DNA of 64,000 nucleotides, taken from positions 682,001 through 746,000 of the forward strand of contig JAQOWU010000007.1 in assembly GCA_030867685.1 (NCBI GenBank), in the 5' to 3' direction. A program made the position numbers and the translations under genes. The stretch comes from Wickerhamiella versatilis (taxonomy: Eukaryota). The notes beneath the pieces are model-generated. The model searched no databases. It was not told the origin of the DNA and saw nothing but the letters and a program-made list of their open reading frames with translations. Of this stretch, positions 4,677 through 63,006 are shown in pieces. Every line of letters starts with the position of its first letter. Positions within the stretch are counted from its first letter, which is position 1.

Positions 4677-4712
4677 TCAGTGCTGACGTAAGGCTAAACA
4701 CACCAGCTGCGC

Positions 4713-7106
4713 ATGGCTGTGAATCGTCCTCTTGCAGCTCAACTCGGGGAGCTTTTAGAGGCTTCTTTCAACCTTCCTAATGCAACATGCGAACTCGGTC
4801 GCGTTGAGCTGGGCCCAGAGGAATTAGAAGCTGTTTCTAAAGCAGCTACGCCGGGGCATGGTGTAGATGCTAAGGCCCACTACTTGCTGGCTGGTTCCGG
4901 TTTTAATGCAGAAAAAGTTCTTTCGAAAATAGGTATGATCCATTTTGCTCATCGGCAAGCTGCTCAGCCTAAATCTGTTGAAGGATTCCTGAGCTCTAAG
5001 AAAGATAAAACTGTCTATTCTAGCGTGGATCAGCTAGTTGCACAGAGCTGTCAGGAATTTGAGAACTATATCCATGACCAAGTTCACACTGATTGGAAAG
5101 CAAGGAAGCAGGAAATATATGCAACACTTGGGCTCGTTCAGAAACAACAGGATATGAAACGGCCTCAAAGAATCGAATGGGGCCGTCGGCTCACAGGACC
5201 CCTTGTATTGGGTGCCGTTGAAAGTGTTCCTATGTCTTTGCAGATGGCACATCGAGCCAGGGATTTTGCAAATGTAATTTCAGAATACAATGACGCTCGC
5301 TTATGCTCTTCCGAATACCATCTCGTGAGTAAGTTAGGAGAGACTGCTAAAAGGTTTGACTGGGGTGCTCCGCAGTTTCAAGACGTGTGGGACTTCTTGC
5401 ATTTACTTGAGTCCACCAAAGATCCGTCTAAAACTGCGTTGCGTTATCTCGAGACACAGTATCGTGCATTTATTGATTCTGAAATAGACTCACATCGCCA
5501 GGATGCAAAGATCGGTGGCATACCATCATTTTTCTACAAGGTAAAGGCTTTTGTAGCTTTGAAACACTGTCCTGGAGGAGTTTGGGACGAAAATCTAACT
5601 CTTATCAACAAAACACCAATCTGGGTTTACCTCTACTACCTTGTTCGCTGTGGTTGCTATAAGGAAGCACTGCAACTAGTTTTGGAGCGCTCCGATATTT
5701 TTGAATTGATTGGATCGAGTTTTGCAGCTTACTTTAAAGCATGGATCCAATCACCAGACCACATCCTGAGCCCACACTTTCAAGAACTGATACACAGTGA
5801 ATACGCACAAGAGTTCAGACCTGGCCAGTCGTTTGATCCTTACAGGCAAGCTCTTTATAAAATCATTGGTCGTTGTGATCTACAGCATCGCTCACTTCCT
5901 GAAGTGGCTACCACTACGGAAGACTGGATATGGCTTCAGTTGGTCTTAATTAGACAGACTCCTGCAGAGTTCCGTAGTGAACGCTATGATCTTGCCGAAC
6001 TCCAACAAGGGATTCTCAGTATTGGCGCTGAATATTTTGATCCTACTGGAACTCAGCCAGCTAAGCTTTTTTCAGTATTGCTCTTAACAGGACAGTTTGA
6101 ATTTGCTTTGAACTATTTAAGAAGCTCTCCTATTCCTGAGCATGAGTTGATAGCAACTCATGTGGCCATAGCTTTGGAGTCTCTTGGTGCGCTGAACATC
6201 GAAATTAATCCCAAAACTTCTGACTACCTTGTTGATACAACAAAATTGAACTACTCAGTGTTTGTAGGCCATTACACCCGTTTTTTCCGTCAATCGAAGC
6301 CTGCGGCAGCTGTTGATTATCTTGTGCTATTGCCAAATCATGTTGCTCGAGAAGCGCTTCAGGAATTGGTATTAGAAACGCGTGCCTTCGGTGAATTACT
6401 AGGAGATGTGGGTGTATATACCGGTGCTATTGAACGGCGTATGGAGCTTATCGGCATAAATGATAGGAAGTCTTTCTGTCGTGACATTGCATTTGCGGCA
6501 GCTGAGAAAGCCGAATCAGATGGGCGTACTCTCGATGCAATCTTGTTGTATCGCCTTGCGGAGGAGTACGATCGTGTCCTTCAGATGATAAATCGCTCGT
6601 TAGGGCAGTCGCTTAGCCAGATTGAGTTGGGTCAACCCTTAGACAGTCTTGATACTCTGCAGCTTGCACGCAACTTGATGCGGCTTCCCGATCAGAAGCC
6701 ATCCGAAAGTCGTAATACCTGTCTTACCCTGCTAGGCGTGGGTGATGCGCTTAGTCTTCTGGCAGCCAGCCAATATGAACGATGCCTGGAACAAATATCC
6801 TCGACCGGATTATTACCTCTTTCTCCAGATGCATCCGTGACACTGGTAAGAGAAATGGCCCAGCAATTCACACGATATGATGACTCTATTGCACGGACTA
6901 TCCCAAATCTCCTATTAGCAGCTATGACTTGCTGTATTCGCATTAGCCATTCGCTCAAGGATTCTGAAAGTCCTATGGCAGCTTCTCTTTATGGTGAGTT
7001 CCAGCACCGTGCTAACAATTGTATGATGTATGCAGGTCTCATACAGTATCGTATGCCTCGTGTTGTTTATTCGCGTCTTACGCAGATGGAAGCACAGCTT
7101 TCCTAA
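4713..7106 (+). CDS. NIC96: Nucleoporin Nic96/Nup93
   Basis: AKAHYLLAGSG, LRYLETQY, PIWVYLYYLVRCG, DPYRQALYKIIGRCD, TEDWIWLQL, C-terminal MMYAGLIQYRMP. Confidence 0.92.
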   Translation: MAVNRPLAAQLGELLEASFNLPNATCELGRVELGPEELEAVSKAATPGHGVDAKAHYLLAGSGFNAEKVLSKIGMIHFAHRQAAQPKSVEGFLSSKKDKTVYSSVDQLVAQSCQEFENYIHDQVHTDWKARKQEIYATLGLVQKQQDMKRPQRIEWGRRLTGPLVLGAVESVPMSLQMAHRARDFANVISEYNDARLCSSEYHLVSKLGETAKRFDWGAPQFQDVWDFLHLLESTKDPSKTALRYLETQYRAFIDSEIDSHRQDAKIGGIPSFFYKVKAFVALKHCPGGVWDENLTLINKTPIWVYLYYLVRCGCYKEALQLVLERSDIFELIGSSFAAYFKAWIQSPDHILSPHFQELIHSEYAQEFRPGQSFDPYRQALYKIIGRCDLQHRSLPEVATTTEDWIWLQLVLIRQTPAEFRSERYDLAELQQGILSIGAEYFDPTGTQPAKLFSVLLLTGQFEFALNYLRSSPIPEHELIATHVAIALESLGALNIEINPKTSDYLVDTTKLNYSVFVGHYTRFFRQSKPAAAVDYLVLLPNHVAREALQELVLETRAFGELLGDVGVYTGAIERRMELIGINDRKSFCRDIAFAAAEKAESDGRTLDAILLYRLAEEYDRVLQMINRSLGQSLSQIELGQPLDSLDTLQLARNLMRLPDQKPSESRNTCLTLLGVGDALSLLAASQYERCLEQISSTGLLPLSPDASVTLVREMAQQFTRYDDSIARTIPNLLLAAMTCCIRISHSLKDSESPMAASLYGEFQHRANNCMMYAGLIQYRMPRVVYSRLTQMEAQLS

Positions 7107-7776
7107 AACATAAAAGAATACTTAAGATAATAGGGCCGAAGTAAAGTAGTATAGTGGTGTTTTTAATGTGACCTTGGTCACTGTGGGATGTGAATAGCTG
7201 TATACGAACATCAAAGAATGAAAATCCACGCATATGTAGGAGTTGGAACGACACATGGTAGTATTGAATTGATTGATCAAGCATCACCGTATCTGACATT
7301 CGTCGACGAAAAGACTTTCAAGTATCATAGTGAAATTAAGGGGTGGACTGTCCATGATGTGTGCTCCGGGAAGAGTTGAACACGCCCAAAAATTGGTTGA
7401 CGATCATCAAATTACCCGATGTCCATTCTTTTCTTGTCGATCTTCCCCGAGGATTGCTCGACCTAATAAACCAAATAGAGTTAGATTTGTGTGGTATCTG
7501 TCCCTTGTCGAAGTTTATCTATAATTTTAAGTGAAAGCAGTGCTAACTCTTTCATCCGCCTTTCACTGTGTATAACTAGTCGGTAAAACTGCTAGAGGTG
7601 ATGAAATTAAGGGGTTTATTGTGATATGGTTCTCCAAAAGTAGTACTCTCAGATATCATGTCATTATATTTCAGTCAAGCGAAACGGATTCCAGTTTGGA
7701 CATATAATGCTCTCTCGGTTAATTGTGATTCTGGGGGAGACTTAATGGGTTAGGGCGCGAGTAGCACATCTTGAGT

Positions 7777-61071: not shown

Positions 61072-61156
61072 ATAGAATATGTATTAGAACAGAATATAGT
61101 TTTATGTACACAGTAAACTTATTTGGTAGATTGAATTTTTCATCACACCAACATGG

Positions 61157-62986
61157 TTACACCAGCAGACCAAGACTCTCTAGAAAAGCATCTGATGTTG
61201 GTGGTCTGCCAAGCACAACTCTGAGTTGCTCGTTTTCTGGCTCTGAGCCTCCTTTCGACAGTAATTCGTCCACATAAATATCCGCATGACCCTTCTTAAT
61301 ACAGTTCTTCCATATATCAGCCGCAAAAACCAACGACCACATATAGCCATAGTATCCAGCGTCATAGCCACCCATGAGATGGCCGAATGTGGTGTATCCC
61401 GACAGCTCAACAGGCGAGGAAACTCCAATGATCTCTGTTCTTAGCTCATTCCACCGGCGCCTAGCATCAAAGTTGGGTGTGGTATGGGCCTCCAAATCGA
61501 AGAGACCGAAGAACAGCTGTCTCAATGTAAACGAGGCTGCATTTGTGGTCCTCGACAACACCAACTGGGATATGAGCTCGTCAGGCAGTGAGGGACTAAG
61601 TCTCTTTAGTACAGCTGGCTCCCAGGCCCAGTTTTCGAGTAATTGACTGGGCGTCTCGACAAAGTCATGGGCAACCTTAGTACCAGAGAACCGCGCATAT
61701 TTGCTATGTCCGAGAATATCATGTACACCATGGCCAAGTTCGTGGAAAAAAGTGACCACATCGTCGTGAGTTAGGAAAGATTTGGGGAAATTGCAGACCA
61801 GGGCAGTAACTGGCAAATGGTCTAAATCACCCGATATCAGGCCAAAATTTGCAAAGTGTGGGTACTTATTGGGGCGGGGGTAGAGATCGAGATAGATCCA
61901 TCCTTTGACTGCGTCGTCACGGTAAAGCGCGTAGCATCTGAGATCAGGATGCCACTTACGGCTATCTGAAAGAGGCTGGGGGCGGAATTCTATCTTATAT
62001 GCATCCTCAATGACCTTGAAAACCTGCTCAATTGTGCCCTCCGTTGGGAAATAATCACTGAGTTTTGTTGGGTCAAACGAAAGAGACTGTGTTTGACACC
62101 AGGGGATATCCCAGGGCATAAGCGAACCCCCTTTCAGCTTTTCGAATTGTTTGTACTCCTTCTCTGCTGCAGGTTTTGCCTTTAAAACTAGGTCCTTAAG
62201 GAAATTTTGAACATTTGCTGGTGTTTCGGCCATGCGGTCCTCCAACACATATGCGGCATGGTTTTGGTAACCAAGCATAGCCGCTACTTTACTCCTTATC
62301 TTCAAAGCCTTCTGAAATAGCGGTTCGTTCTCCTTTACCCTCGTTTCATTAAGCAGGAACAGCTCTTTCCTTGTCTCCTCTACGGAGCAGTTCTTCATCA
62401 CTGGCTGCATGTCAGGAGCTTTAGATGTCACTTTATAGCCTTTTTCACTGGGAACCCTTCCCTCGAACCATTGTTCCGGAACTCCTTTCAGCTGTTCCCG
62501 GGTAAACCAACAATGCGAGTCGTCAGCCCCGATGTTTGCGTTGAACTGTATGCACAGAGAGCCTAATTCTTTTTCCAGCCTGGTAAGCTCTTCTCGATCC
62601 TTCGCCGATAGATCTAGTCCATTTTTCTGAAATTCCTTTATTGCTTTCATTTTAAGTCGGTCATCCACGCCTTCAAGTTTTGGCATTGTACGAAGAGCAT
62701 CATATACATCTTTTCTCTTACCAAGATCCACACCAAATTTCATAAATTCGTTGTCTGCATACTCACTGGCCTTGCGGACCTCAGGGTTGCTAGAAACAAA
62801 TTGAAAGAACGGCAGTACGGGATCATATAGCTTAGATTCAGCCCGCCCAAATTTCTCAATACTTGGATTTTTACAGAATTTTTCAAATGAATCACTTACA
62901 GCTGAAACAGTCTGCTCAGTGCCTTTCTTTATTTCCGCTGCTGAGAGATTAAACCGAGGCAGTTTAGACAATAGCCCCAGCGACAT
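61157..62986 (-). CDS. PRD1: M3 metallopeptidase (saccharolysin/thimet oligopeptidase)
   Basis: [21 protein letters not shown] (HExxH), [28 protein letters not shown]. Confidence 0.92.
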
Positions 62987-63006
62987 GCTGCTTTCTCGTA
63001 ATCACG

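Follow-up and report, generated by a model that had tools for sequence, protein, structure and literature searches.

Seven pairs of head-to-head genes whose start codons lie less than 50 bp apart in a budding yeast: probable use of one very small initiation zone per pair

Seven divergent gene pairs, in which the two start codons were separated by less than 50 bp or overlapped, were found in a 64-kb window (the whole stretch of DNA that was analyzed), and these are probably real ultra-compact head-to-head pairs, with one very small initiation zone common to both genes of each. The window contained 39 genes (82% coding), ordinary metabolic and housekeeping genes among them. Using ATG-started ORFs and the standard code, all seven pairs proposed in the preliminary description were reproduced at the same coordinates and with the same spacing: NDC1 (2928-4676, minus strand) and NIC96 (4713-7106, plus), separated by 36 bp (4677..4712); UBP2 (10077-13034, minus) and BCS1 (13073-14308, plus), by 38 bp (13035..13072); ARP8 (21917-23737, minus) and MTG2 (23736-25130, plus), by -2 bp, the start codons sharing 2 bp (CATG) at 23736..23737; NGL (43512-44480, minus) and URA5 (44528-45163, plus), by 47 bp (44481..44527); FAN1 (49315-51066, minus) and TRM7 (51086-51931, plus), by 19 bp (51067..51085); an orphan gene of 197 aa (53934-54527, minus) and eIF3h (54577-55518, plus), by 49 bp (54528..54576); and PRD1 (61157-62986, minus) and TMA7 (63007-63201, plus), by 20 bp (62987..63006). 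Gene identities were confirmed by Pfam for 13 of the 14 genes; no Pfam family matched the orphan, a lineage-restricted gene whose relative at 56% identity is also 197 aa. NDC1 and NIC96 both encode nuclear-pore proteins.

Divergent gaps in the window (n=11) were -2, 19, 20, 36, 38, 47, 49, 232, 423, 429, and 938 bp (median, 47 bp), and the medians of the convergent (n=10) and tandem (n=17) gaps were 155 and 265 bp, respectively. Gaps of less than 50 bp accounted for 7 of the 11 divergent gaps but for 2 of 27 among the convergent and tandem gaps of the window (Fisher p = 7e-4), and the tight pairs were scattered over 58 kb rather than forming one block. In the excerpts of a survey of 45 budding yeasts, divergent gaps have a median of 517 bp, co-oriented gaps one of 405 bp, and convergent gaps one of 158 bp, the lowest divergent median being at least 326 bp among 39 of the 45 species rows of Table S2 (PMC6993858). 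The divergent pairs of these Saccharomycotina are similar to those in the window in that head-to-head protein-coding genes have a common upstream region and gap lengths are bimodal; however, divergent gaps are the longest class there and the shortest here, the order of the gap classes being reversed (PMC6993858, in excerpt). With a divergent median of 47 against 517 bp, the gaps were far below those of typical budding yeasts, in support of the preliminary description, and this median was also below the 115 +/- 50 bp estimated for a single yeast promoter (PMC6993858, in excerpt). In S. cerevisiae, only approximately 7% of divergent pairs (about 103/1412) are separated by less than 200 bp (PMC6993858, in excerpt), whereas 7/11 in the window were separated by less than 50 bp; taking this S. 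cerevisiae share as a generous bound, the probability of at least 7/11 was 3e-6.

The first ATG is supported as the true start in all 14 genes of the tight pairs by homology or domain limits, as judged from the sequence. The next in-frame Met was located 21-178 codons downstream, and the conserved sequence started earlier in each case. A relative of UBP2 at 63% identity was aligned from Met1 and matched it at 15 of the first 16 residues, and that of the orphan (56% identity) was also aligned from Met1. Alignments began at residue 9 for NIC96 (with yeast Nic96), residue 2 for eIF3h (with human eIF3h), and residue 8 for BCS1 (with yeast Bcs1), the next Met of which (residue 21) was within the conserved segment. 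Since a relative of MTG2 at 55% identity was aligned from residue 2, residues 2-23 of MTG2 are translated. Matches started further inside the protein, but well ahead of the next Met, in NDC1 (Pfam match from residue 27; next Met at residue 73), ARP8 (actin-family match from residue 59; residue 95), FAN1 (human FAN1 from residue 33; residue 178), TRM7 (FtsJ domain from residue 21; residue 151), and PRD1 (neurolysin from residue 56; residue 82), and the Pfam match of TMA7 started at residue 3. BCS1, NIC96, and eIF3h lacked 11-38 N-terminal residues of their solved homologues, so that these proteins begin at the conserved cores.

RNA reads from a strain with 2.3% divergence (unstranded libraries) were mapped at NGL/URA5, FAN1/TRM7, orphan/eIF3h, and PRD1/TMA7, and capped 5' ends were called from template-switch junctions, that is, from template-switch-oligo tails. 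All eight gene bodies of these pairs were covered by RNA in four runs (in X7, FAN1 bins at 20-45x and PRD1 bins at 40-58x), and antisense read-through may be a source of partner-gene coverage because the libraries were unstranded. Exact capped ends were obtained for two genes, TMA7 being the one that belongs to a tight pair. The TMA7 mRNA (plus strand) started at 62998..63000, which places the capped end 7-9 nt ahead of its own ATG and 12-14 nt away from that of PRD1; tails were found in 181 and 86 reads at 62998 and in 153 and 94 reads at 63000 (X10 and X11, respectively). The mRNA of a ceramidase gene (46655-47500, minus strand) started at 47513..47516, 13-16 nt before its ATG, with reverse-complement tails in 46 and 48 reads at 47513 and in 72 and 84 reads at 47516; since this gene is outside the tight pairs, short leaders are not limited to them. 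The four mapped start sites all had a pyrimidine-purine step, C|G and T|A in TMA7 and C|A and T|G in ceramidase, and no GGG/CCC was found upstream of these four sites.

Both 5'-end zones of NGL and URA5 were located inside their gap (44481..44527). Plus-oriented reads of URA5 numbered 3/3 at 44494 and increased to 48/49 by 44522 (X10/X11), and RNA fragments piled up at 44541; the leader was at most 33 nt and probably 6-14 nt. On the NGL side, minus-oriented reads in X11 decreased from 35 (44439) to 21 (44486) and 8 (44491). The 5' boundary of eIF3h was within the 49-bp gap, with a pile-up at 54557 of 59/88 and 58/98 molecules. No 5' ends of PRD1, FAN1, TRM7, or the orphan were among the entries listed, no splice joints were reported at the four RNA-mapped pairs, and no indels between strains were found inside their gaps. 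Mapped mRNAs thus began only about 7 to 30 bases ahead of the start codon, in agreement with the ultra-short leaders that had been put forward as one possible form of transcription in these pairs.

In models of yeast promoters, each promoter is taken to occupy approximately 100-150 bp of nucleosome-free DNA, the start site being 30-120 bp downstream of the initiation complex. Since the start codons of the tight pairs are less than 50 bases apart and mapped mRNAs start approximately 7-30 bases before the ATG, ordinary promoters cannot be accommodated in the gaps; it follows from this geometry that the core promoter or initiation-complex sites would be in the coding DNA of the partner. At the partner coding starts, neither an AT-rich nor a GC3 signature indicative of an embedded promoter was found, a search for a motif shared by the gaps gave nothing beyond the shuffle level, and visual inspection of the flank upstream of the TMA7 start revealed no canonical TATAWAWR. 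Between the strains, the NGL/URA5 gap differed at 5/47 positions versus 33/1092 in the flanking CDS (p = 0.017) and was the fastest-changing part of its locus, this being the one gap comparable between strains. The TMA7 leader (7-9 nt) is within the length of about 5-30 nt of TISU-type leaders, while no TISU-like motif common to the 14 start contexts was found (the consensus is mammalian). Position -3 was a purine in 8 of these 14 contexts.

Alternative explanations of the pairs were considered. If one gene of each pair began at a downstream ATG, the true gaps would be 70-530 bp, with ordinary promoters. The first ATG of an open frame is not necessarily the start, and the second Met of MTG2 and BCS1 is only 23 and 20 codons downstream; however, conserved protein sequence ahead of the next Met in 14/14 genes, together with RNA boundaries of TMA7, URA5, and eIF3h just upstream of the first ATGs, makes such mis-set starts highly improbable, and the true starts well downstream that the preliminary description had named as one way in which its reading could fail were not found. 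It is also unlikely that each gene starts deep in the CDS of its partner, from a promoter of normal size located there, with mRNAs overlapping in antisense for tens to hundreds of bases. The template-switch junctions of TMA7, 7-9 nt before the ATG (514 reads over two runs), the drop of URA5 plus reads between 44522 and 44494, and the eIF3h boundary within its gap all argue against such leaders. Furthermore, an upstream ATG was present within 50 nt of 9/14 tight-pair starts, and the nearest one was at a median of 44.5 nt, similar to that for random positions (40 nt), indicating that long leaders free of ATG are not maintained. In FAN1, out-of-frame ATGs are present 4 and 10 nt before the start, a pattern expected neither of a long leader nor of a clean short one. 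On the other hand, because the start codons of ARP8 and MTG2, each supported as a true start, have 2 bp in common, an overlap of their 5' mRNAs is required, this being the only pair in which the sequence forces crossed 5' ends. At NGL/URA5, the gap is traversed in X11 by 7-8 minus-oriented reads, and these and 3 plus-oriented reads cross it past the main drop, so that some crossing is possible, and microsporidian transcripts have been reported to start in upstream genes (PMC3629993, in excerpt). The crossed antisense 5' ends of the preliminary description are therefore forced by the sequence for ARP8/MTG2 and are hinted at by a few reads for NGL/URA5, but not as the main mode, since the ends of TMA7 and URA5 are inside the gaps.

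A local cluster without any special mechanism, in which tight pairs are abundant in the window by chance and the genome is otherwise ordinary, appears to be a rather improbable explanation. A few tight pairs would be tolerable in any compact yeast, the evidence is drawn from one 64-kb window, the convergent and tandem gaps in this window resemble those of other yeasts, and divergent gap lengths in yeasts are already bimodal (PMC6993858, in excerpt). This explanation is opposed by the proportion of tight pairs (7/11) and their dispersal over 58 kb, by the low probability obtained even with the generous S. cerevisiae-based bound, and by the ceramidase gene, whose short leader outside any tight pair suggests a general feature of the transcriptome.

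We therefore favor ultra-compact pairs with a common initiation zone. Because the 5' boundaries of TMA7, URA5, and eIF3h are inside the gaps, the start zones of the two partners adjoin each other or have a few bases in common. Pol II initiation complexes would assemble approximately 30 bp (classic) to 40-120 bp (scanning) upstream of the start site, and the assembly site of each gene would hence lie over the partner's initial tens of codons, as probably would the whole nucleosome-free region. Two oppositely oriented complexes would then be placed on overlapping DNA and could not occupy it simultaneously, the gap sequence itself would be low in information, and translation would have to cope with leaders shorter than 10-20 nt. 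Such an arrangement probably originated by deletion-driven shrinkage to the functional limit. We suggest only tentatively, as a possibility that is less likely to be true than not to be, that this reflects a distinct genome-wide initiation regime, in which leaders are typically shorter than 20 nt and most head-to-head genes use a zone of 50 bp or less, with the promoter and complexes on the CDS of the partner.

Start sites in animal bidirectional promoters are usually about 100-200 bp apart, at the edges of one nucleosome-free region. In the present pairs, by contrast, the start codons are less than 50 bp apart, and a distance of 12-30 bp separates mapped start sites from the ATG of the partner. 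Bidirectional promoters in animals are defined by divergent pairs with start sites less than 1 kb apart (PMC2670823, in excerpt); the seven pairs fall within this definition, being on opposite strands with ATG-ATG distances of -2 to 49 bp, and are similar in that two genes run outward from a short region and that housekeeping genes are typical (PMC2670823, in excerpt). Among overlapping head-to-head coding genes, such as human INO80E/HIRIP3, the overlap involves long 5' exons and sense/antisense regulation (PMC11890862, in excerpt); ARP8/MTG2 must likewise give mRNAs overlapping at the 5' end, but has a 2-bp coding overlap. Yeast initiation is described as having a classic mode, with TATA at -30, and a scanning mode, with TATA at -50 to -120, and the pyrimidine-purine step found at 4/4 mapped sites is a feature of both (PMC7849388, in excerpt). 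The exact leaders (7-9 and 13-16 nt) differed from the median 5' UTRs of conserved pathways in 12 yeasts, which are 37-63 nt (PMC7849388, in excerpt). Encephalitozoon cuniculi and other compacted microsporidia have among the shortest known 5' UTRs, together with tiny spacers and overlapping transcription (PMC3629993, in excerpt). The likeness to microsporidia that had been drawn previously is only partial: the 5' UTRs are also very short here, from two exact values (TMA7 and ceramidase), whereas microsporidia are reduced obligate parasites in which all spacers are compacted (PMC3629993, in excerpt), and the squeeze here is limited to divergent pairs. Tandem and convergent spacing (265 and 155 bp, respectively) is ordinary for yeast, and the gene set looks complete.

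Two promoters placed side by side do not fit expressed housekeeping pairs whose ATGs are 19-49 bp apart or overlap and whose leaders measure 7-16 nt. The tight pairs would provide a natural system for the minimum size of a bidirectional Pol II promoter, for whether a coding sequence can double as a core promoter, and for how the yeast ribosome finds an AUG 7-9 nt from the cap. For yeast engineering, spacers of 20-50 bp together with the codons flanking them would be the most compact known elements for two-way expression, and this genome would be mis-annotated by gene finders that either trim first ATGs or insist on a minimum spacer upstream. If the genome-wide regime is true, thousands of genes would carry dual-use sequence in their first tens of codons, and Pol II initiation and cap-proximal translation would be adapted, in a free-living and metabolically rich budding yeast, to a geometry for which reduced parasites (such as microsporidia and Giardia) are so far the only known examples.

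Seven pairs of divergent (head-to-head) genes whose first ATGs are less than 50 bp apart had been named in a preliminary description, and all of them were reproduced when ORFs were listed from ATG with the standard code over the whole window: NDC1/NIC96, 2928-4676 (-) and 4713-7106 (+), with an ATG-to-ATG gap of 36 bp; UBP2/BCS1, 10077-13034 (-) and 13073-14308 (+), 38 bp; ARP8/MTG2, 21917-23737 (-) and 23736-25130 (+), a 2-bp overlap (CATG); NGL/URA5, 43512-44480 (-) and 44528-45163 (+), 47 bp; FAN1/TRM7, 49315-51066 (-) and 51086-51931 (+), 19 bp; an orphan of 197 aa and eIF3h, 53934-54527 (-) and 54577-55518 (+), 49 bp; and PRD1/TMA7, 61157-62986 (-) and 63007-63201 (+), 20 bp. 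Thirteen of the 14 gene names were borne out by Pfam matches (Ndc1_Nup, Nic96, UCH+RPT, BCS1_N+AAA, Actin, GTP1_OBG, Exo_endo_phos, Pribosyltran, VRR_NUC, FtsJ, eIF3h_C, Peptidase_M3, and TMA7). The orphan matched no Pfam family, and an Atlas search returned no usable neighbor; its gene body was covered by (unstranded) RNA reads, and one relative of the same length was found. The protein is apparently restricted to its lineage, and no family match assigned it a function. NDC1 and NIC96 are both nuclear-pore genes, and their head-to-head position makes them a candidate for co-regulation. To our knowledge, S. cerevisiae has neither eIF3h nor FAN1; the window carries both, which places it beyond the family of Saccharomyces.

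The window contains 39 annotated genes, is 82% coding, and has an average G+C content of 45.5%. Its 11 divergent gaps had a median of 47 bp (-2, 19, 20, 36, 38, 47, 49, 232, 423, 429, and 938 bp), with no value between 49 and 232 bp, and the medians of the convergent (n=10) and tandem (n=17) gaps were 155 and 265 bp, respectively. Gaps shorter than 50 bp accounted for 7/11 of the divergent class versus 2/27 of the other classes (Fisher p = 7e-4). In the available part of a survey of 45 Saccharomycotina genomes (PMC6993858), medians are 158 bp for convergent, 405 bp for co-oriented, and 517 bp for divergent spacers, the last being the longest class, and a yeast promoter is put at ~115 +/- 50 bp. 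Therefore, the earlier expectation that tight gaps are rarer in typical yeasts held against this source: the window reverses the usual order, with the divergent class the shortest, and its divergent median is lower by an order of magnitude than those of the surveyed budding yeasts, among which the lowest is 326.5 bp in 39 of the 45 rows of Table S2. S. cerevisiae medians in that table are 219, 499.5, and 383 bp, and about 103 of its 1412 divergent pairs are below 200 bp (Table S3 and the header of Table S4); using this share as a generous rate, the probability of at least 7 of 11 was 3e-6. B. adeninivorans LS3, with 48.1% G+C and 74.1% coding, has a divergent median of 443 bp, in contrast to the 47 bp found here. 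Thus, convergent spacing in the window is ordinary, tandem spacing is somewhat short, and the divergent class alone has collapsed, about ten-fold; since the collapse is limited to this class, it is a specific feature and not general compaction. No description of divergent spacing below 50 bp or of leaders (5' UTRs) below 20 nt as a budding-yeast feature was found in the open-access literature.

The assumption that translation starts at the first ATGs was upheld for all 14 genes, in a check set beforehand, by Pfam domain limits, solved homologues, or relatives; the distance to the next in-frame Met is 21 to 178 codons. The Pfam domain starts before the next Met in six genes: NDC1 (from residue 27, next Met 73), ARP8 (59 and 95), NGL (19 and 83), URA5, TRM7, and TMA7. 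Five others were aligned to solved homologues (PDB): NIC96 to yeast Nic96 from residue 9; PRD1 to neurolysin from residue 56 (next Met 82); FAN1 to human FAN1 from residue 33 (next Met 178), a homologue search having returned only the query's own cluster; BCS1 to yeast Bcs1 from residue 8 (the conserved segment includes the next Met, 21); and eIF3h to human eIF3h from residue 2. For the remaining three, relatives from another species were used: those of UBP2 (63% identity) and the orphan (56%, also 197 aa) were aligned from the N-terminus onward, and that of MTG2 (55% identity pairwise, 58% in the search table) was aligned from residue 2, and therefore residues 2-23 are translated. Mis-set starts, with the true ATGs farther downstream, are therefore a highly improbable source of the short gaps, all 14 checks standing against them. 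Over-conservation of the N-terminus, taken as a possible mark of dual use, was mixed among these three genes, with 15/16 identical residues in UBP2 (residues 1-16), 13/20 in the orphan, and 9/24 in MTG2 (counted from the alignments).

Four RNA sequencing runs with the same species label were compared with positions 44000-63500, which contain four of the seven pairs. The reads differed from the window at 454 places (summed) in 19.5 kb, or ~2.3%, most being 95-99% alike, and the RNA therefore comes from another strain or a sibling species. First mates were equal on both strands; the libraries are therefore unstranded, and the strand was assignable at transcript ends only. The poly(A) single-read runs (X10 and X11) had loose read ends with the consensus GTATCAACGCAGAGTACATGGG, which we take to be the 3' part of a template-switching oligo. 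Such an oligo is joined at the capped mRNA 5' end in cDNA synthesis. The random-primed paired runs (X7 and X8) showed sharp fragment pile-ups without loose ends; relative to the template-switch ends, those at 63025 and 47498 were 25-27 and 15-18 nt further in, and one at 47931 lay 7 nt past the tubulin ATG. Hence, 15-27 nt at the mRNA 5' end are missing from X7 and X8, whose pile-ups bound the mRNA starts on the downstream side. Gene bodies were covered in 8/8 genes of the four pairs (unstranded). No splice joint was reported at any of these pairs, indicating neither 5'-UTR introns nor spliced leaders, and no indel was reported within the four gaps.

Template-switch tails were found directly before 62998 (181 and 86 reads in X10 and X11, respectively) and 63000 (153 and 94 reads), which gives TMA7 mRNA a leader of 7-9 nt and puts its start 12-14 nt away from the PRD1 first ATG. 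Reverse-complement tails behind 47513 (46 and 48 reads) and 47516 (72 and 84 reads) similarly gave a leader of 13-16 nt for a ceramidase gene (46655-47500, -) that belongs to no tight pair. A pyrimidine-purine step, described as a rule for Pol II start sites in the available text of PMC7849388, was present at all four template-switch positions, and GGG/CCC was absent upstream of all four, which argues against strand invasion by the oligo. A pile-up at 54557 (59/88 and 58/98 molecules in X7 and X8) places the eIF3h mRNA start at or upstream of this position, with a leader of 20 nt or more; the same offset would put the start at ~54530-54542, 3-15 nt from the orphan ATG. Regarding URA5, X7 and X8 showed a pile-up at 44541, and plus-oriented reads of X10 and X11 increased from 3/3 at 44494 through 48/49 at 44522 to 70/80 at 44575; the majority of its ends are thus placed between 44495 and 44522, which corresponds to a leader of 6-33 nt. 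Minus-oriented reads of X11 numbered 35 at 44439, 21 at 44486, 8 at 44491 and 44494, and 7 at 44522: the main 5' end of NGL precedes its ATG by a few bases, and a minority of reads cross the gap. None of the boundaries listed was a 5' end of PRD1, FAN1, TRM7, or the orphan. An aminoacyl-tRNA synthetase gene (52045-53760) had an RNA boundary at 53770/53771.

Several further features were noted along the window. An RNA boundary at 52056 (X8, 19/75 molecules), at the edge of the stretch 51932-52056, falls within the synthetase coding sequence, 9-11 nt from its 3' end (stop 52045-52047), and the convergent gap between tubulin and FAN1 (49289-49314) is 26 bp; convergent transcripts probably extend into coding sequence at their 3' ends, or the sequence of the other strain is different at this place. 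At 57710, upstream of a cysteine dioxygenase gene (57831-58478), 43-57 reads per poly(A) run carried 37-40 loose letters that are not the template-switching oligo; this points either to replacement of the upstream region in the other strain or to a 5' exon located elsewhere. A tandem gap of 32 bp (8629-8660) follows the stop codon of a DUF1689 gene (7777-8628, +); the GPP34/Vps74-like gene beyond it (8661-9803, +, from its first ATG) has a putative start, its GPP34 domain beginning only at residue 105.

Long leaders running into the partner gene should deplete upstream ATGs there. No depletion was observed at the 14 tight-pair starts: the nearest upstream sense-strand ATG was at a median of 44.5 nt versus 40 nt for random positions, and 9/14 starts had one within 50 nt. 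The ATG at 44489, read from the gap sequence, would open a 7-codon upstream ORF for URA5, and it is situated upstream of the mapped URA5 ends. These data, together with the TMA7 and URA5 ends, make it unlikely that long crossed leaders are the main mode. Out-of-frame ATGs at -4 and -10 of FAN1, inside the 19-bp gap (51067-51076), open a short frame overlapping the FAN1 ATG; they could be a translational damper or indicate that the leader is shorter than 4 nt.

No embedded-promoter signature was detected in the partner coding starts (14 tight-pair genes versus 25 others): the AT content of the partner's first 200 bp was coding-like (0.47-0.57 versus 0.56-0.65 upstream of other genes), and GC3 of the first 40 codons showed no shift. 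No motif was common to the gaps beyond shuffles (P = 0.23, 0.81, and 1.0 for the top 4-, 5-, and 6-mers, respectively). The coding sequences on either side of the NGL/URA5 gap had 17 strain differences in 456 bp and 16 in 636 bp, and the 47-bp gap itself had 5 (p = 0.017 for this one gap, among the best-supported differences listed); the gap is thus the most divergent part of the locus, suggesting weak constraint on its sequence. ACGTAAG occurs on the sense strand at 4686-4692 (NIC96, -27), 54540-54546 (eIF3h, -37), and 53791-53797(-) (the synthetase aaRS2, -37), which are 3/5 copies in the window, and the two TMA7 start sites sit in the related CGTAA. The heptamer could represent an initiator or bZIP-type site; its occurrence was not significant, a few such cases being expected by chance among 16,384 7-mers (estimate).

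We consider it probable that the seven pairs are real bidirectional units of an ultra-compact kind, with the following initiation geometry. Direct support comes from true starts -2 to 49 bp apart and from 5' boundaries of TMA7, URA5, and eIF3h inside the gaps. According to the available text of PMC7849388, the distance between TATA and the start site is about 30 bp in yeasts of the classic mode, e.g. Y. lipolytica, and 50-120 bp in those of the scanning mode. With this published geometry, the initiation complex of each gene would assemble on the partner's first tens of codons; the two complexes would use overlapping DNA, probably one nucleosome-free region centered on the gap, and would be mutually exclusive at any moment. 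Ribosomes would have to recognize AUGs 7-20 nt from the cap. The preliminary description had regarded the gaps as too short for two Pol II complexes plus 5' UTRs and proposed crossed 5' ends or ultra-short leaders, with promoters in coding sequence. Short leaders were supported by the capped ends of two genes among the ends listed (TMA7 and ceramidase), which lie 7-16 nt from the ATG; promoters within coding sequence are what we infer; and crossed ends are necessary for ARP8/MTG2 only, where, judging from the overlapping ATGs, the 5' ends must cross. A local cluster of short gaps without genome-wide meaning is another unlikely reading, to be given no more weight than long crossed leaders. A metagenome scan with TRM7 returned 358 relatives, of which 80 loci were kept (best identity 63%, mostly distant eukaryotes), and the one inspected had a divergent gap of 274 bp upstream.

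The tight pairs work like bidirectional promoters and fall within their definition. The suggested likeness to microsporidia was partly retained: leader length is similar according to the available part of PMC3629993, whereas the other features of microsporidian compaction were not found, because tandem (265 bp) and convergent (155 bp) spacers and gene content are ordinary. BCS1, NIC96, and eIF3h start 38, 11, and 34 residues later, respectively, than their solved homologues, and the proteins begin directly at their conserved cores. Such N-terminally minimal proteins suggest deletion-driven shrinkage to the functional limit.
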